IMG/VR virus record: IMGVR_UViG_2695420701_000015
Source: a virus
Lineage: Duplodnaviria > Heunggongvirae > Uroviricota > Caudoviricetes
Length of the DNA stretch: 10,133 nucleotides
Direction: 5' to 3' (one strand)
Of this stretch, positions 1 through 10,121 are shown piece after piece; the first letter of the stretch is position 1; the number at the start of each line of letters is the position of its first letter. The notes beneath the pieces were generated by a model that was not told the origin of the DNA, did no database searches, and saw nothing but the letters and a program-made list of their open reading frames with translations. Position numbers and translations under genes: made by a program.

Positions 1-35
1 TGAGACTAACTTTTGAGACTTCTAAGGGGAACATT

Positions 36-587
36 ATGGCGATACTTGGATATTGCAGGGTGAGTACAGATGACCAATCCATCACTAACCAGCAAATGCA
101 AATTGAAGAGGCAGGGTACAACATTGCTAAATGGTTCACTGATGAAGCTGTCAGTGGTTCTGTCAAAGCTTCTTTAAGAAACGGTTTCAGCAGACTATTA
201 GCTTATGCACGAGAAGGTGACACCGTAGTTGTGGTAGCTGTAGACCGTCTTGGACGTGACACAATTGATGTGTTATCAACGGTTAAAGCGCTACAGGCTA
301 AAGGTGTGACAGTTATCAGCCTTAGAGAAGGGTTTGACTTATCAAGCGCTATGGGTGAAGCAATGTTAGGCATTATGTCAACGTTGGCACAGCTTGAAAG
401 AAGCTTGATAGCAGAGCGTAGAAAGGCTGGTATTGAACGTGCTAAAGCTGAAGGGGTACATATGGGAAGACCTGTAAAAGCTTCTTCAGAGGCTGTACAG
501 ATGCTTATTTCACAAGGTAAAACGAGGTTGCAGATTCAGGAAGAGCTAGGAATCTCTAGAGCAACTTATTACAGACTTGCTAAATAA
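36..587 (+). CDS. Small serine recombinase (resolvase/DNA-invertase family), 183 aa
   Basis: Complete ORF. N-terminus MAILGYCRVSTDDQ carries the catalytic-serine motif of small serine recombinases; VDRLGRD motif; C-terminal HTH-like [13 protein letters not shown]-like AAGGGGA about 6 nt upstream of the ATG. Confidence 0.9.
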   Translation: MAILGYCRVSTDDQSITNQQMQIEEAGYNIAKWFTDEAVSGSVKASLRNGFSRLLAYAREGDTVVVVAVDRLGRDTIDVLSTVKALQAKGVTVISLREGFDLSSAMGEAMLGIMSTLAQLERSLIAERRKAGIERAKAEGVHMGRPVKASSEAVQMLISQGKTRLQIQEELGISRATYYRLAK

Positions 588-776
588 GTTACTGAATAGT
601 TACATGGATGTAGCTGATATTTGGCTTTTTTGCCAAGGGGGTCACATAGCTGGTGTGACGGGTACTAAACACGTATACATCATGAGGTAGATTCTACCGA
701 ATCAACTAGACAGATATTTTCGAAGATTCGGGGAAGATGAGATTCAAAGAGGGCTAGTCATTTTTTATAAAAAATT
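198..776 (+). repeat. Copy A of the recombinase-3'/downstream module (3' part of the gene plus about 190 bp downstream)
   Basis: Direct repeat of 777-1356. The first 80 bp downstream of the stop (588-667) are identical in all three copies and contain palindromes TTGGC-T6-GCCAA and GTCACA-N7-TGTGAC. Copy A has a distinct 44-bp patch (668-711). Confidence 0.85.
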
Positions 777-1164
777 AGCTTATGCACGAGAAGGTGACAC
801 CGTAGTTGTGGTAGCTGTAGACCGTCTTGGACGTGACACAATTGATGTGTTATCAACGGTTAAAGCGCTACAGGCTAAAGGTGTGACAGTTATCAGCCTT
901 AGAGAAGGGTTTGACTTATCAAGCGCTATGGGTGAAGCAATGTTAGGCATTATGTCAACGTTGGCACAGCTTGAAAGAAGCTTGATAGCAGAGCGTAGAA
1001 AGGCTGGTATTGAACGTGCTAAAGCTGAAGGGGTACATATGGGGAGGCCTGTAAAAGCTTCTTCAGAGGCTGTACAGACGCTTATTTCACAAGGTAAGAC
1101 GAGGTTGCAGATTCAGGAAGAGTTAGGAATCTCTAGAGCAACTTATTACAGACTTGCTAAATAA
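777..1164 (+). pseudogene. 5'-truncated second copy of the serine recombinase gene (C-terminal about 129 codons only)
   Basis: nt 777-1164 align to nt 200-587 with 5 substitutions (4 synonymous, 1 Met->Thr). The catalytic N-terminal domain is absent; ORF-track ORF 808-1164 starts at an internal Met. Confidence 0.8.
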
Positions 1165-1356
1165 GTTACTGAATAGTTACATGGATGTAGCTGATATTTG
1201 GCTTTTTTGCCAAGGGGGTCACATAGCTGGTGTGACGGGTACTTAGCAGCTACAGACATCTGTCAGATATTTTTGAAGATTCGGGGAAGATGAGATTCAA
1301 AGAGGGCTAGTCATTTTTTATAAAAATTTTCAGACTCTGAAAAGTTACTGTACAGA
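777..1356 (+). repeat. Copy B of the recombinase-3'/downstream module (tandem, head-to-tail with copy A)
   Basis: Junction at about 774-777, where ...TTTTATAAAAAATT joins AGCTTATGCACGAG (gene position about 200). Downstream part 1165-1356 matches 3491-3684 almost exactly. Confidence 0.85.
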
Positions 1357-1508
1357 ATATATACAGATATCTTTAAAGTATCTGTAAAAACTTTTAAGAT
1401 AAAAGATAGATATCCCAGAAAGGATATCCGTTTAGAAAACCTGTTAAGTATCTCTTAAAAGAGAGTAAACCTTGTCAAGAGTGATTGCAATAAAAATTTT
1501 TATTTCTT

Positions 1509-2171
1509 ATGTCAATTGAGCATATTTTAATCGGGAAGCATCATGGGGGTTCTGATTACTGGAGAACTCCATTTTTGTTATTTAAGAACTTACACCGTGA
1601 ATTTATTTTCAGTCTAGATGGTGCTGCAACTGAGCATGACACGCTGTTACCACGATTCACCGATGATATAAGCCGTCAATCATGGGTTAGTGAAAAGGTC
1701 TTCTGTAACCCGCCGTACAGCGATATTCCGTCGTTCCTCTTAAAAGCGTCTGAAGCGGATTTAGTAGCTTTCCTGATACCGCATAGAGCCAACACCAGCT
1801 ACTGGCTTAGGCACATTTACAGCAATAACCACTGTCATGAAATCCGTATTCTTCATCGTGCAGTTAAATACCTTCCACCAGCAGGGCATAACAGGCTTAC
1901 TATTAGGTCACCGTTTCCAAGTGCAGTCGTTGTTTTTAAAAAAGAACCACGTAAGCATGAAATTACACAGATGGTTTGCTGTGCTGATACATTGCTACCG
2001 TTAACCATCATTAACCGTGGTGGACTAAGAGGAAGACCCACCATTTACCCACCTGAGACGCTCGACAGCTTCATAAAACTATACAGGCAAGGAAAACCCA
2101 TTAAGTACATTGCAGATGCTCTCAGAATGCCTCTGAGCACGTCATACAGGATTGCTCAAAGGTTGAGCTAA
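1509..2171 (+). CDS. DNA N6-adenine methyltransferase, phage Dam-like family, with C-terminal HTH-like extension (220 aa)
   Basis: Motifs DYWRTP, LDGAA and FCNPPYSD (NPPY catalytic motif of amino-methyltransferases) in the order typical of the phage Dam family. C-terminal about 45 aa (KPIKYIADALRMPLSTSYRIAQRL) resembles a resolvase-type HTH. No adjacent restriction endonuclease gene is visible. Confidence 0.75.
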   Translation: MSIEHILIGKHHGGSDYWRTPFLLFKNLHREFIFSLDGAATEHDTLLPRFTDDISRQSWVSEKVFCNPPYSDIPSFLLKASEADLVAFLIPHRANTSYWLRHIYSNNHCHEIRILHRAVKYLPPAGHNRLTIRSPFPSAVVVFKKEPRKHEITQMVCCADTLLPLTIINRGGLRGRPTIYPPETLDSFIKLYRQGKPIKYIADALRMPLSTSYRIAQRLS

Positions 2172-2275
2172 AATTCTCATAAATATGGTCATTTACAAGA
2201 CAGGTGATTCAGATGTTAAGAAGTATCCCCGTGAACAATAAATGACCAATCAGTAATCATTCTGTGAAATAATTG

Positions 2276-2304
2276 TTGCAATTTATAATCACATCTGTTA
2301 TAGT
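2276..2304 (+). promoter_or_regulatory. Candidate sigma70 promoter (TTGCAA-17 bp-TATAGT)
   Basis: Hexamers and 17-bp spacing read directly. It lies about 230 bp upstream of the 2535 ORF, so the assignment is tentative. Confidence 0.3.
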
Positions 2305-2534
2305 TTCTATATGGGCTGATAAAAAAGTTCATGTCTTGAAGTGGTAACACTTGGGGAGGTGTCAGATGGTTGGCGTATATTAACCTCTCATTCAGGGTAT
2401 ACCTCAGCGTTTTAATCATCGTACTGTTTCAGGCATGGACTTCTTTATCAGTCCATCAATCCCCCAGATATTTTAATCACACAGGCTAATCGGTTTTATC
2501 CGGTTGGCCTTTTCACGTATGAGGTAATTTATGA

Positions 2535-2924
2535 ATGTCTAAATATAACCCAAATCAGTTTTATAAATTTGATGTGCGAATCTCTCAACTTTCAGAAGAA
2601 ATTAACGCAGCAGCAAGATTGATTTATATGGTCATGGTCCATAGCTGTGACTTCTATGAAGAGAAATACAAATCATATTCACCAAGTATTGACCATCTCG
2701 CTTATATGGCTGGTGTATCAAAGAGAACAGCAATCAGAGCCATTGAGACACTTGAGAAACACGGTTTAATTCAGGTGCAAAAGAATCAGGGGCGTCAAAG
2801 CACTTATCGTGTATTCACACTGGATGATAAGCCGGAATTACTTGTAAGACCTACATCACAGGAAGTTGCAGCCTCAGTAAGACAAAATGACACCACTACC
2901 AGTGACAAAATGTCATGGGGGTAG
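2535..2924 (+). CDS. Winged-helix DNA-binding protein, possible replication-initiator or regulator N-terminal part (129 aa ORF)
   Basis: Segment LAYMAGVSKRTAIRAIETLEKHGLIQV is HTH/winged-helix-like. GAGG lies 10 nt upstream of the ATG. The ORF stops at a TAG (2922-2924) between two 15-bp repeats, and the coding signal continues in another frame. Confidence 0.5.
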   Translation: MSKYNPNQFYKFDVRISQLSEEINAAARLIYMVMVHSCDFYEEKYKSYSPSIDHLAYMAGVSKRTAIRAIETLEKHGLIQVQKNQGRQSTYRVFTLDDKPELLVRPTSQEVAASVRQNDTTTSDKMSWG

Positions 2925-3138
2925 TGACAAAATGTCACCCGTGTTAGAGTTAGATAAGTTATTAGATAAAACATTAGATAATAATATTACAGATAAGAAT
3001 AAAGAGACTGGACTTAATGATGATATTAAAGAAGATGACTTTCTTTCTTTGGATGAATTAAATGATTTTCTCTCTATGAATGAATCTGACCTTGAAGTAA
3101 GCTCTAAAAAGGGTGATGCTGCCAACTTACTGATTTAG
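2887..3138 (+). pseudogene. Acidic C-terminal continuation of the rep-like gene in a shifted frame, 3'-truncated by IS1
   Basis: ORF 2887-3138 re-reads the second 15-bp repeat as SDKMS, the same peptide ORF 2535-2924 reads from the first repeat. Its last 9 codons (GDAANLLI-stop) are encoded by the IS1 left inverted repeat, so the native 3' end is missing. Confidence 0.35.
2901..2937 (+). repeat. Two exact 15-bp direct repeats AGTGACAAAATGTCA, 22-bp period, each containing the palindrome TGACA-N3-TGTCA
   Basis: Read directly: copies at 2901-2915 and 2923-2937. The 7-bp spacers differ (TGGGGGT versus CCCGTGT). Confidence 0.9.
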
Positions 3139-3450
3139 TGTATGATGGTGTTTTTGAGGTGCTCCAGTGGCTTCTGTTTCTATCAGCTGTCCCTCCTGTT
3201 CAGCTACTGACGGGGTGGTGCGTAACGGCAAAAGCACTGCCGGACATCAGCGCTATCTCTGCTCTCACTGCCGTAAAACATGGCAACTGCACGCATTATG
3301 GGCGTTGGCCTCAACACGATTTTACGTCACTTAAAAAACTCAGGCCGCAGTCGGTAACCTCGCGCATACAGCCGGGCAGTGACGTCATCGTCTGCGCGGA
3401 AATGGACGAACAGTGGGGCTATGTCGGGGCTAAATCGCGCCAGCGCTGGC
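3112..3450. mobile_element. IS1 remnant: intact left terminal inverted repeat, insA with internal deletion, start of insB; right part absent
   Basis: GGTGATGCTGCCAACTTACTGAT at 3112-3134 matches the IS1 left inverted repeat as I recall it. The following sequence encodes the InsA N-terminus ([41 protein letters not shown]). About 85 bp appear to be missing after 3291 relative to canonical IS1 (from memory). IS1-like sequence stops at 3450. The segment is visibly more GC-rich than its flanks. Confidence 0.8.
3167..3334 (+). pseudogene. insA: insA remnant (GTG start), frameshifted by the internal deletion
   Basis: Translation from GTG at 3167 gives the InsA N-terminus and then diverges after ...KTWQL into [14 protein letters not shown]-stop. 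The InsA C-terminal peptide [21 protein letters not shown] is encoded in a different frame. Confidence 0.7.
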
Positions 3451-3451
3451 A

Positions 3452-3684
3452 TAGGAATCTCTAGAGCAACTTATTACAGACTTGCTAAATAAGTTACTGA
3501 ATAGTTACATGGATGTAGCTGATATTTGGCTTTTTTGCCAAGGGGGTCACATAGCTGGTGTGACGGGTACTTAGCAGCTACAGACATCTGTCAGATATTT
3601 TTGAAGATTCGGGGAAGATGAGATTCAAAGAGGGCTAGTCATTTTTTATAAAAATTTTCAGATTCTGAAAAGTTACTGTACAGA
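3452..3684 (+). repeat. Copy C of the module: last about 13 codons of the recombinase gene plus downstream region
   Basis: TAGGAATCTCTAGAGCAACTTATTACAGACTTGCTAAATAA and the following about 190 bp match 549-587 and 1165-1356. It begins abruptly inside IS1-derived sequence. Confidence 0.85.
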
Positions 3685-4630
3685 TTTTGCACAATCCTAC
3701 CAAACCTCATAGTTGATTCGATTAGAAGCTAATCTCATAGAAAGCTCTGTAGCGAGTTTTAACCCCATTTTTAGGGGTAACCTATAGGGATGTACTAACC
3801 ACCTTAAAATAAAGGGGTAAAATCGCTTAGAATGCGTTACAGAGCGTCTGAGAAGCCATATTCACAGATTTTACTAAAACCTCAGACTTCTAAGTAGTCT
3901 TTTAACAGGAGGGGTTCCCCTATGGTCACATATCCCCTCTCTTTCCACTAAGTAAGCCTTAGCAGCACCTAAGCAACAATTGACTAACAGATTCGGTAGA
4001 GTCTATCTCATAGGTCAACTTCATAAACTCAGAGCTAAGTTACCTTGAAAGATTCTACCAAGAACTACACAGGTGTTATTTAGTCTGACTGTGAAGGGAT
4101 ATTTAACGGGAGAAGAGATACGATATAACCCGAAGGGAGAGTATCATCTTAACAATTATCTTAAGAATAAAACTGAAAAACTCTTAACAGATAACCACCT
4201 AGAAAGAAGGGAACGATAAGACCAGAGGTAGTGACCTGTTAAACAGGCTGTTTCAAAGTCTCTTAAAAGTCTGTTAAGTAAGGTCATGTGAACAATCTTA
4301 CCATTTTGTCAATGCTTTTGTCTTTGACCTAAATCAATAAAATGTATCGTTTGATATGCTTTTAAACAAAATAGCTAAAAAATCTTTTTTTAGAGGGGCG
4401 CTTCGCTTGGGGTCACTATGAATGATTTTTCTCTCGCTAAGAGAGCGCTTACAGAGGTCTTTCAAATCTCAATAGCCAGCCGAGGAACACAGGAAACCGA
4501 GGGAAGAAAAACTATTGTGATTACCTTGAACAAGGTCTGTAAAGGTCGTTTAAGAGGTCGGTTAAGAAAGGAGCTTCCCTCTCTGGGGTTATCGCTCTTC
4601 TCCCGATTAGTGGGGCGGTTAAGGGGGCTT

Positions 4631-4812
4631 GAAGTTATCTGTGAAGGTACTGGACAGTCTTATATATTGGGTGATTACAACTCGTTGAAAAATAAGCATT
4701 TTTAGAAGTTACTGTTAAGGTTGCAGAGTTGTCTGTGAAGAGACTTGTCAGTTCTCTATATATGGCTAATTACAACTTATTGAAAAATAAGAACTTTTAG
4801 AAATTACTGTCA
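4631..4812. repeat. Two imperfect tandem direct repeats, about 94-bp period
   Basis: TCTGTGAAG...TTGAAAAATAAG(C/A)A(T/C)TTTTAGAA(G/A)TTACTGT occurs twice, starting at 4638 and 4732, roughly 80 percent identical by eye. Confidence 0.8.
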
Positions 4813-4945
4813 GAGAGGTGAATGCTTGATAGACACAGCTTTCCGGTTCTGTCAAGCTATTTTTTAATAGATAGCACAAAATGCTAAAGACACCCCTGTA
4901 CCATAGACTTCTATCTGTCATCTCGTGCAGGGGTTTTGAAGGAGT

Positions 4946-5122
4946 TTAACGGGGGTCTGTGTGGTCGTTATCCTTAAGGTCAAGCGTCCATGTACGACCG
5001 AACAGTTTAAAGACAACAAGCACTCTGACGAGGACGTAGCGAAGTAGCAGGCCTGCAATCAGCCCAATACCTCCACCAGTCCATACATCAGGTGACCCCA
5101 GCTCAGGAGGGAGATTTACCAT
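4946..5122 (-). CDS. Candidate small membrane protein, 58 aa (MVNLPPELGSPDVWTGGGIGLIAGLLLRYVLVRVLVVFKLFGRTWTLDLKDNDHTDPR)
   Basis: Internal Met of ORF-track ORF 4946-5278 (-). AAGGA RBS 6 nt upstream on the minus strand. One predicted transmembrane helix with a charged C-terminus. The palindromic element 5137-5234 lies immediately upstream. Confidence 0.35.
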   Translation of the reverse strand: MVNLPPELGSPDVWTGGGIGLIAGLLLRYVLVRVLVVFKLFGRTWTLDLKDNDHTDPR

Positions 5123-5136
5123 TAGTTTTCCTTGTA

Positions 5137-5234
5137 AGACGCTCTCAATCGCATTCTGACACAAAAAGTACCTGACCTTATGAGTTGACCTGAAGAGGTC
5201 GTTTAACTCGTTACAGGGCGATTGAAGAGGTCTG
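5137..5234. repeat. Palindromic repeated element, copy 1 (terminal inverted repeats AGACGCTCTCAATCGC / GCGATTGAAGAGGTCTG)
   Basis: Both terminal arms are shared with copy 2 at 6765-6886; the central part differs. It sits immediately upstream of the RBS of the minus-strand small ORF. Confidence 0.8.
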
Positions 5235-5336
5235 TGTGCAATGCAAAATATGCGACCAAATACATAGCCACGCCTCATATTTTACTCTCCCCATAAACCC
5301 ATTATACCACAGATGTTACGAAAATGTTAAAAATAC

Positions 5337-5365
5337 TTGACATTAGTCTTTGAAAATGCTAATAT
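5337..5365 (+). promoter_or_regulatory. Candidate sigma70 promoter TTGACA-17 bp-TAATAT
   Basis: Consensus -35 and near-consensus -10 with 17-bp spacing, about 50 nt upstream of the 5417 ATG. The -10 is followed by TGTATATAT, as at the 7320 promoter. Confidence 0.55.
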
Positions 5366-5416
5366 TGTATATATAGGTTAACAGAATAATAACATCTTCT
5401 GAGAGTCAGAACATGA

Positions 5417-6728: not shown

Positions 6729-6764
6729 TCCGAGACTTTAAGAGAAATTAGAAAAACAGCTTAT

Positions 6765-6886
6765 CAGACGCTCTCAATCGCATTCTAACGCAAAAAACTA
6801 TCTTATTTTAGGGTGGGTAATACCACTGTACAGGCTACCCCTGAAAAAGACTGTTTAGCTCGTTACAGAGCGATTGAGGAGGTCTG
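6765..6886. repeat. Palindromic repeated element, copy 2 (CAGACGCTCTCAATCGC ... GCGATTGAGGAGGTCTG)
   Basis: Same terminal arms as copy 1 and an internal palindromic core. It ends about 20 nt before the ATG of the 6907 gene on the plus strand. Confidence 0.8.
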
Positions 6887-6906
6887 GTAAAAAGGAGATT
6901 TTAAAA

Positions 6907-7319: not shown

Positions 7320-7348
7320 TTGACAAACAACCTTGAGCATGACATAAT
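7320..7348 (+). promoter_or_regulatory. Candidate sigma70 promoter TTGACA-17 bp-CATAAT
   Basis: Consensus -35 with 17-bp spacer, followed by TGTATATATGG as at the 5337 promoter. Confidence 0.5.
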
Positions 7349-7357
7349 TGTATATAT

Positions 7358-7385
7358 GGGGAGAGCAATTCTCTCTTATTTTTTC
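7358..7385 (+). terminator. Intrinsic-terminator-like hairpin (GGGAGAG-CAATT-CTCTC followed by TTATTTTTTC)
   Basis: Short stem followed by a T-run, 63 nt after the stop of the 7230-7295 ORF. It could terminate the 5417-7295 operon or attenuate transcripts from the 7320 promoter. Confidence 0.5.
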
Positions 7386-8843: not shown

Positions 8844-10121
8844 ATGGCACAATTTAAAGTTGATGATTTTCTGATTGAGTTAAGTTTTAACTCTCAGAAA
8901 GTTTTAAAAGGCTTGGAAAAAGCCGAGAAACAAACGATGCAGGTAGCATCACGAATTGAGAAGCGATTGAATAAGTCGTTTAGAGTTAATCCTACGCCTT
9001 TAAATGATTCTCTCAAACTAATGGAAAGAAATGTCGATAAAACTGTTTCCAAGATTGAGCAGCGTCTTAAAAACACTAGAGCGTTTAAGATTAAAACTGA
9101 AATTGAGGATACTTTAAAGCCACTTAGACAACCAAGACAGCCACGAATTAGCGGAAGCAGAGCAATCACAGCAGCTTACTCAGCGAATATGAGCAAGCTT
9201 CGTGACTTTAATCCTATGCTTGAGAAGTATTTTAAAAGCCAGTATTACAGCTTAAGCAGTAAATCCAAGACACTTGGAAACGAAACTTTTAATCGTGAGT
9301 TAGCAAAGTTAAATCAGTCTCTTCGTGAAACACTTTCTAAGTTTAACAAGACCACCAGCAAAAATAATCACAGTGAAAATGCTTCAAATAGTCTGGATGT
9401 ATTAGCTACGAGTGCAATCAAAGCAGGTACAGCCATTTATAGTTTTCAGACAGCCTTAGAAGCTTACAGGCGGATTATGGAGGTTGGTCTGAAAAAAGAA
9501 GCATCACAACGAGCGGCACAATTCGTTTTAGGTGATGAAGGTGCTAAACGAGCTACAGAATTTGTTAAGAATCTTGCTGATAGTAGTGGTGTAGACCAGA
9601 TTGAAACATTAAGCAGTTTTGCTAAGTTTTCCGCTGGTGCTGGTGATATGAATGCAGACCAGAAAGAATCCTTATTTTCTAATGTGATTGGTACATCCAG
9701 ATTAATGGGGCTAAGCACCGATGAAATTAACGGGATTTTAAAAGCTTTCGAGCAGATGGCATCTAAAGGAAAGATTCAGGCTGAAGAGCTACGCGGTCAA
9801 TTAGGTGACAGAATGGCAGGTGCTTTTCAGTTATTTGCCAGAAGTCTTGGGATGACTACGGAAGAATTAGACAAGGCCATGAAAGACGGTAAGGTTCTTT
9901 CTAAAGATGTTCTTCCTAAAGTATCCGCTGAAATGGGAAGGATGATTGATAAAGCTGGTGGATGGGAAAAGATTATTAACTCTACTCAGACGCAGTTAGG
10001 CCGCTTAAGTAATTCATGGAATAATAATCTGGCCTTAATGTTCGATGGTTCACAGGAAGGTTTAACAGACTTTACAAGGTCACTGACTAATTTACTTAAT
10101 TCACTAAATAGCTGCGCTTAA
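8844..10121 (+). CDS. Tape-measure-domain protein, 425 aa
   Basis: AAAGAGGTG RBS 10 nt upstream. Residues about 290-380 (GILKAFEQMASKGKIQAEELRGQLGDRMAGAFQLFARSLGMTTEELDKAMKDGKVLSKDVLPKVSAEMGR) match the conserved phage tail tape-measure N-terminal-type domain pattern as I recall it. Predicted helical N-terminal half. Complete ORF with TAA at 10119-10121. Confidence 0.8.
   Translation: MAQFKVDDFLIELSFNSQKVLKGLEKAEKQTMQVASRIEKRLNKSFRVNPTPLNDSLKLMERNVDKTVSKIEQRLKNTRAFKIKTEIEDTLKPLRQPRQPRISGSRAITAAYSANMSKLRDFNPMLEKYFKSQYYSLSSKSKTLGNETFNRELAKLNQSLRETLSKFNKTTSKNNHSENASNSLDVLATSAIKAGTAIYSFQTALEAYRRIMEVGLKKEASQRAAQFVLGDEGAKRATEFVKNLADSSGVDQIETLSSFAKFSAGAGDMNADQKESLFSNVIGTSRLMGLSTDEINGILKAFEQMASKGKIQAEELRGQLGDRMAGAFQLFARSLGMTTEELDKAMKDGKVLSKDVLPKVSAEMGRMIDKAGGWEKIINSTQTQLGRLSNSWNNNLALMFDGSQEGLTDFTRSLTNLLNSLNSCA

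Follow-up and report, generated by a model that had tools for sequence, protein, structure and literature searches.

A conserved gene-free module in a family of enterobacterial chromosomal islands resembles in part the terminal-repeat end of Felix-O1-like phages

The window analysed here is a 10,133-nucleotide stretch of DNA from IMG/VR virus record IMGVR_UViG_2695420701_000015 (Caudoviricetes), and our subject is a non-coding region in it that belongs to a family of chromosomal islands of Escherichia coli and its relatives. A sequence-only reading of the window had delimited this region at 3685-4945, found no convincing open reading frame (ORF) in it, and proposed a candidate replication origin or non-coding RNA locus. 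The region is gene-free, as claimed, but the real span is wider, 3492-4945, with the right edge set by a minus-strand gene for a protein of 58 amino acids (aa). Five ORFs of 43-95 aa can be drawn, and they keep start, frame and stop in merely 1-7 of about 56 homologous variants. Indels in the variant alignment are not multiples of three, and the segments are mosaic, with alternative alleles. The 95-aa ORF has no PHROG match, and no ORF remnants with homologues were found in the region. Parts of it align with the short direct terminal repeat (DTR) of Felix-O1-like phages (Ounavirinae), and we divide it as follows, giving the strand where a part has one.

3500-3700: block B, homologue of the Ounavirinae sequence across the right end of the DTR; the equivalent of the phage cut lies between 3571 and 3572.
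3701-4090: segment V1, mosaic and allelic, with CTCATAG three times, a long hairpin at 3744-3845 and a hairpin at 3909-3950 that contains AGGGGTTCCCCT.
4110-4150, plus strand: hairpin H, conserved, with an inner stem of 4117-4121 paired to 4141-4145.
4189-4303: block A, homologous to an internal element of the phage DTR, with 82-95% identity to 10 Ounavirinae phages.
4304-4416: block P, AT-rich, the best-conserved non-coding block (about 96% family identity), directly 5' of the cargo slot and without a phage homologue.
4417-4564: cargo slot M, which here holds only the start of the non-conserved 95-aa ORF.
4545-4623, plus strand: array of 12-nt GGTCGGTTAAGA-type repeats, in 2-5 copies among islands.
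4633-4810: tandem repeat of 2 x 95 nt, kept in most of the family.
4811-4893: block T, 93-97% conserved, without compensatory pairs, and with a minus-strand TTGACA at 4862-4857.
4892-4940: GC-rich hairpin and T-run, immediately past the stop codon of the small gene that converges on it, with a 17-nt indel polymorphism in the loop.

The short elements described earlier were located, and two of them were compared with shuffled sequence. Of the two palindromes, AGGGGTTCCCCT lies at 3910-3921, but the second is CCTGTTAAACAGG (4235-4247, 13 nt) and not the 14-nt string that had been quoted. CTCATAG does occur three times (at 3706, 3734 and 4007); 1.3 copies are expected and 29 of 200 shuffles reach three, so this count alone is not significant. 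The three direct repeats G(T/G)CG(G/T)TTAAG, found at 4545-4623, are significant, with 0.06 copies expected and three reached in none of 200 shuffles. The tandem repeat is present (4633-4810, 1.9 copies, 82% match), but its period is 95 rather than 94. The hairpin followed by a T-run is also there, with stems at 4892-4901 and 4925-4934 and TTTTG after them (-20.3 kcal/mol, z -2.7), and CTGTTAAGTA and TCTCTTAAAAG recur at 1440-1465 as had been noticed. In about 26 related islands the slot between 4416 and 4565 is occupied by a gene for a Dam-like methyltransferase. Part of a single copy of the 2 x 95-nt repeat is all of it that aligns in a Citrobacter locus (L005).

A megablast comparison of the region with phages and plasmids gave no match, and block A surfaced with sensitive blastn alone. 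The sole matches in the sensitive search lie in unannotated DNA of Ounavirinae phages of about 87 kb, in a gene-free gap of about 1.7 kb on which genes converge from both sides; this gap holds the short DTR. The record of phage Ro111lw has identical 613-bp ends, and PhageTerm gave a 613-bp DTR for this phage (PMC6454146). Pr103Blw has an annotated short DTR of 581 bp, with the first bases GCCCCCTTAAC... and the last ...GGGCTACC/AAGCAG (the slash marks the cut), as in Ro111lw. The homologue is present in 246 phage records. For block B the blastn E value is 1e-21, and the B site family is represented in 86 sources. An nhmmer profile was made from four phage gaps and run on the window and 10 island loci, 11 sequences together; it found B at E 1e-16 to 6e-6 and A at E 1e-7 to 6e-4 in all 11, Citrobacter included, and no significant match besides these two blocks.

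The alignment of block B runs through the cut site, and flanks and spacing are conserved. The boundary reads ...TTTTGCAAAG-N25-GGGCTACC/AAGCAG...CAGATATTTTT...TTTTATAAAAATTT in the phages and ...TTTTGCCAAG-N25-GGGTACT/TAGCAG...CAGATATTTTT...TTTTATAAAAATTT in the islands, the form in the window being ...TTTTGCCAAGGGGGT-N20-GGGTACT/TAGCAG...CAGATATTTTTGA...TTTTATAAAAATTT. Just past the cut, a 29-nt palindromic element, CATCATGAGGTAGATTCTACCGAATCAACT, shows a presence/absence polymorphism in phages and islands (window 680-712; phage locus L003 2858-2890). That the same insert is polymorphic in both points to DNA exchange at the DTR-end site; an inverted, diverged copy of it lies at 3981-4011, inside V1. 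In islands and phages alike, block A consists of an inverted repeat with a conserved loop between its arms, with the register shifted. In the window its arms lie at 4184-4200 and 4226-4242 around the conserved core GGGAACGATAAGACCAGAGGTAGTGACC (4209-4236), and the palindrome CCTGTTAAACAGG and CTGTTAAG motifs follow.

The phage DTR is filled with (C/T)TGTTAAG-type motifs at a spacing of about 11 nt, and the GTTAAG core of these repeats is also the core of the 12-nt array of the island. GTTAAG occurs in the phages at 19.6 per kb in the DTR, 8.2 in the gap and 0.5-0.6 in genes. The island values are 3.7-4.1 per kb in non-coding DNA, a four- to five-fold enrichment, compared with 0.9-1.0 in coding DNA and 0.8 in host DNA. 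Block B copies both sides of the right DTR end, where the phage genome end is made, and on the strength of these comparisons we incline, by a small measure, to the view that the module is partly derived from the DTR of a helper phage or has been kept similar to it. The DTR gap of the Ounavirinae (phage JH2, L003 1797-3493, and its equivalents) is itself well conserved and carries the short phased motifs CTTGTTAG, CTGTTAAG, CTTAAAAG and CTATAAAG; the literature searched yielded no study of the function of elements in this gap or of Ounavirinae terminus processing.

Tail genes shared with the same phages are a second, independent tie between the island and the Felix-O1-like group. The Dit-like island protein shares 65-71% identity with the Ounavirinae protein whose gene comes next after that of the tape-measure protein (299 phage records), and the best full-length matches of the island tape-measure protein are Ounavirinae tape-measure proteins, at 28-34% identity. 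The two genes are adjacent and in the same order in island (L001 20109-23113; window 8844-10121) and phage. They are the only recognisable virion genes of the island, in which capsid, portal and terminase genes were not found.

Several blocks are 90-97% conserved across loci in which the neighbouring gene is 75-89% identical, which suggests that the non-coding region is under selection and makes a cis-acting or RNA role reasonable. The opposite view would take the region for neutral debris, left by gene decay or by past recombination with a phage and without present function. The mosaic structure, the alternative alleles and the indels are what such debris would look like, and some islands do lack some blocks; but blocks P, T and A are those that are 90-97% conserved beside a more divergent gene, A and B persist in E. 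coli as well as in E. albertii and Citrobacter, the stem of hairpin H has changed in compensatory fashion (below), and remnants of ORFs with homologues were not seen. We consider this explanation very improbable.

The islands are about 11 kb long and, in complete E. coli genomes, lie between yciI and tonB or beside ymdF. The gene order begins with a small serine recombinase gene, a gene-free stretch of about 1.9 kb, the gene of the 58-aa membrane protein on the opposite strand, and a divergent promoter pair. It continues with small ORFs, including one for an HNH protein, then the genes for the tape-measure protein (PF20155), the Dit-like tail protein (PF21821) and a large serine recombinase. 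The non-coding region is carried by 545 of 5426 complete E. coli genomes (about 10%) and is chromosomal in all of them; relatives of the island also occur in E. albertii, in Citrobacter and at 80 metagenome loci. The large serine recombinase (PF00239, PF07508 and PF13408) lies at the right end of the island, and the left-end sequence is the same at both chromosomal sites. At least two integration sites are used within one family, the ymdF/rutG side (L011, L012) and yciI/tonB (L001, L007, L008, L010), which together with the other flanks of some metagenome copies suggests recent mobility. Among the proteins of this island family there is no recognisable initiator, primase or helicase, and PADLOC defence-system models found no significant family among them. 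With a large serine recombinase at one end, two integration sites, a length of about 11 kb and no capsid, terminase or recognisable replication genes, the setting looks like that of a satellite. A sister family retains block B and homologues of three of the island proteins; in it a methyltransferase gene, a rep-like gene and two ORFs occupy the place of the non-coding module, and neither the tandem repeat nor block T is present.

We read 3492-4945, with slightly more belief than doubt, as a cis-acting module with which a satellite-like island mimics the DTR of a Felix-O1-like helper, for packaging and/or replication; the island probably exploits these virulent phages. From the homology, its position at the DTR end, the conservation, the non-coding status and the common tail genes we infer that the island could be excised, cut, packaged and replicated. 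On phage infection, it would be excised by its own large serine recombinase and amplified. The end-making and packaging machinery of the phage, and possibly its replication proteins, would recognise the look-alike sites, and island DNA would be cut at the B site. Packaging would probably take concatemers of about eight units into a head with a capacity of 87 kb. Alternatively, the look-alike sites would titrate the phage machinery. The remaining parts, namely blocks P and T, the cargo slot and the tandem repeat, are specific to the island and may be origin or regulatory sites. A wider proposal, which we put forward tentatively and which falls somewhat short of probable, is that the islands represent an undescribed satellite family of strictly virulent Felix-O1-like phages in Escherichia, Shigella and Citrobacter, packaged by way of the DTR-end copy, whose own tape-measure and Dit-like proteins would interfere with tail assembly or re-tool it.

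Several observations weigh against the satellite reading. A homologue of the left DTR boundary was not found in profile and pattern searches of the islands; the minus-strand 11-mer GCCCCCTTAAC at 4618-4628, tried as a left boundary, is specific to the window and was taken as chance. The block order is permuted, the islands having B, about 600 nt, then A, and the phages A, 110 nt, then B. With the order permuted and no left boundary, the complete phage-type junction is not reproduced in the island. Block B, the strongest evidence, lies mostly just outside 3685-4945. Five loci (L026, L027, L031, L041 and L078) are without block A, hairpin H and block P, which makes those parts dispensable; in a subset of islands V1, H, A and P are gone and B, the 2 x 95-nt repeat and T are retained. 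The small island proteins had no homologues in a comparison with 50,697 phage genomes. Free, circular or virion-derived copies of the island were not found: metagenome contigs of 10-12 kb have host flanks, and the IMG/VR matches are long contigs. The role of the look-alikes, like that of the phage DTR elements themselves, is a putative one. Finally, neither this island nor any satellite or dedicated parasite of Felix-O1-like phages is described in the literature searched, which fits novelty, yet the reading rests on sequence.

The window itself is a chimera, made of a sister-island part, an IS1 scar and then a second island. Positions 1-773 and 775-3111 are 98-99% identical to the sister island (L116 4020-6578), located at another place in Shigella sonnei-type chromosomes, in which a small serine recombinase gene is followed by a Dam-like methyltransferase gene and an HTH_36 "rep-like" gene. 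This part contains a 577-bp tandem duplication (197-773 again at 774-1350), the copies of which differ by a cassette of about 50 nt. A fragment of IS1 with an internal deletion, the scar, lies at 3108-3450, and the sequence from 3452 onward is that of a different, related island of the yciI/tonB type, which starts with a gene remnant:

3452-3491, plus strand: last 40 nt of the small serine recombinase gene, fused to the IS1 scar.

Block B has two further copies in the window, at 547-776 and 1124-1365: the segment 547-776, which matched the same phage region in the blastn search, is repeated at 1124-1365 and 3452-3693.

This structure bears on the sequence-only proposal of an origin served by the disrupted rep-like gene upstream, on the same replicon. 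The gene (ORF 2535-2924) has matches to Pfam HTH_36 and, at E 1e-11, to PHROGs of replication initiators, and it does lie upstream of the region in the window. It is there because the IS1 scar joins two islands in one chimeric sequence: it belongs to the sister island, which makes up 1-3111, and it is found at none of about 95 related loci. The element, moreover, is chromosomal and no plasmid. The proposed link is thus already contradicted, and we give an origin of this kind almost no credence.

A vegetative origin of the island's own, in which the 12-nt array and the tandem 95-nt repeat act as iterons for an unrecognised island initiator or for host proteins, without phage mimicry, deserves separate consideration. 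The 12-nt array, with its variable copy number (2-5), and the tandem 95-nt repeat adjoin the AT-rich, highly conserved block P, in gene-free DNA, as direct repeats do in the iteron origins of plasmids and in the ori/crr of phage P4; the layout presumably resembles the P4 crr replication region in particular, which likewise has two long direct repeats. The sister family has its HTH_36 rep-like module at the equivalent position and lacks both block T and the tandem repeat, which lends weak positional support to a replication role and is the only argument of this type that we found. However, no cognate adjacent initiator is conserved with the repeats, the rep-like gene being absent from all of the approximately 95 loci, and the family is without a recognisable primase or helicase as well. 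DnaA boxes and GC skew had been proposed as checks: the boxes are not enriched (21 found, 29 expected) and the skew shows no switch. Iteron origins also differ in their repeats, the island having merely two long units and a short 12-nt array, and the core of that array is the GTTAAG motif of the phage DTR, which points back to the phage. We therefore regard an independent iteron origin as unlikely; an origin served by helper proteins or by unrecognised island proteins is conceivable.

A non-coding RNA locus was the other possibility that had been raised for the region. A search of the whole window with the covariance models of Rfam 15 gave no match at the gathering score and chance-level matches only at E values up to 5, the phage gaps likewise gave none, and a tRNA and tmRNA search of the window was empty. 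Consensus folding of 40-54 variants yields short local helices only, and between 4025 and 4850 neither strand has an unusual folding z-score. Compensatory changes support one short hairpin, and folding energy supports another. The inner stem of hairpin H exists in three compensatory versions (ATAC/GTAT, AACC/GGTT and TAAC/GTTA), and 95.8% of its paired cells are complementary, compared with 86.5% in shuffles (none of 500 reaches 95.8%) and 36-57% in slid controls; the outer pairs include G-U pairs on the plus strand only. At the long hairpin 3744-3845, the plus strand of 3725-3874 folds at z -4.9. This hairpin belongs to a set of three related elements of 100-130 nt that share CGTTACAGAGCG, at 3744-3860, 5131-5234 and 6755-6890 (the last at -50.7 kcal/mol, z -6.0); they may serve in RNA processing or attenuation, or may be copies of a small palindromic repeat element.

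On the right, the module meets the convergent small gene:

4946-5122, minus strand: gene of a conserved single-pass membrane protein (58 aa); nearly every variant has it intact, and it is transcribed from a promoter-like site at 5330-5301.

The site is a near-consensus promoter, followed by a leader (5123-5300) with the long hairpin 5131-5234 (z -2.6), and some genomes list the protein as hypothetical. The terminator of this gene, a bidirectional one, is the hairpin at 4892-4940. The conserved 58-aa membrane protein and the common terminator would be compatible with a type I toxin-antitoxin pair, which further calls for an overlapping antisense RNA, and the protein could be toxin- or holin-like. 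In the sister island an unrelated 61-aa membrane protein is encoded at the place of the 58-aa gene.

These features make a transcribed regulatory region conceivable, in which one or more non-coding RNAs, a leader or antisense transcript ending at 4892-4940, would control the 58-aa protein in the manner of 3'-overlapping type I toxin-antitoxin systems, or would serve RNA immunity or attenuation of the island operon. The compensatory changes in hairpin H, with outer G-U pairs confined to the plus strand, would fit such a transcript, as would the z-score of the 3744-3845 hairpin, the related long hairpins at 5131-5234 and 6760-6886, the promoter-like sites, and the bidirectional terminator that adjoins a conserved small hydrophobic ORF. 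The empty Rfam search, the short local helices of the consensus fold and the ordinary z-scores over 4025-4850 argue the other way; a strong sigma-70 promoter for a plus-strand transcript was not found, and transcription would leave the homology to the phage DTR end and the GTTAAG enrichment unexplained. On balance an RNA locus appears rather unlikely as the main function of the region.

The mimicry of a helper terminus, to which we return, has counterparts among described satellites. Phage P4 with its cos site, and the phage-inducible chromosomal islands (PICIs) and Staphylococcus aureus pathogenicity islands (SaPIs) with their cos or pac sites, are like the island in having about 10 kb, an integrase of their own and no capsid or terminase genes. 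They also carry a short non-coding copy of the packaging DNA that is processed by the helper, a part that the right DTR end would play in the island. The differences are several. The putative helper of the island is a virulent myovirus with a short DTR and not a temperate cos or pac phage; the island copies one of two repeat boundaries, with the block order permuted; its integrase is a large serine recombinase, and its mobilisation is putative; and it has helper-derived tape-measure and Dit-like genes in place of capsid-size or regulatory modules.

Both PLE of Vibrio cholerae and PICMI of marine vibrios reside in the chromosome as islands and prey on strictly lytic phages, and PLE has a large serine recombinase, a non-coding origin region, a RepA of its own and an iteron-based origin. 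The island is likewise chromosomal and, like PLE, has a large serine recombinase; a similarity in sequence or protein to these satellites was not seen, no comparison aimed at it having been made. Unlike PLE, it has no recognisable initiator, and it has an Enterobacteriaceae host and a putative helper among the Ounavirinae. The concatemer junction of T7-type phages offers a third comparison. Like it, the phage DTR of about 600 bp is packed with 7-8-nt motifs at a spacing of about 11 nt, and the island has the right boundary and the same motif arrays, without the left boundary; there is no sequence relation to T7. Plasmids with the T7 origin and junction were reportedly packaged as concatemers, as Chung and Hinkle are said to have described in 1990.

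Felix-O1-like phages are widely used in Salmonella and E. coli typing, biocontrol and therapy. If the island can be cut, packaged or amplified by these phages, or can sabotage them, their efficacy would be affected, and about one in ten E. coli genomes carries it. A new route of gene transfer would then exist, with a cargo slot that often holds a methyltransferase gene. The system would also open satellites of virulent phages to study in a tractable E. coli model, beside V. cholerae PLE and its lytic helper ICP1, and the copies retained by the island would point out functional DNA elements of the Ounavirinae terminal repeat. On the wider proposal above, the 1.4-kb module would be the first satellite mimic of a short-DTR terminus; the islands have a sister family in Shigella.

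Two further observations concern genes and promoters around the module. Next to block B, the small serine recombinase comes in two alleles that are not homologous and that occupy one and the same island position in opposite orientations (L001 14054-14629 and L007 8445-8993). An invertible switch was considered and rejected, since the two orientations are those of non-homologous alleles and no inversion is seen; a multimer-resolution site is a possible target of the enzyme. Two near-consensus promoters, at 7320-7385 and 5337-5375, both have TGTATATAT(G/A)GG after them. The one at 7320 runs straight into a terminator hairpin (7358-7385), an arrangement that we take to resemble an antiterminator-requiring constitutive promoter of the lambda PR'-tR' type.

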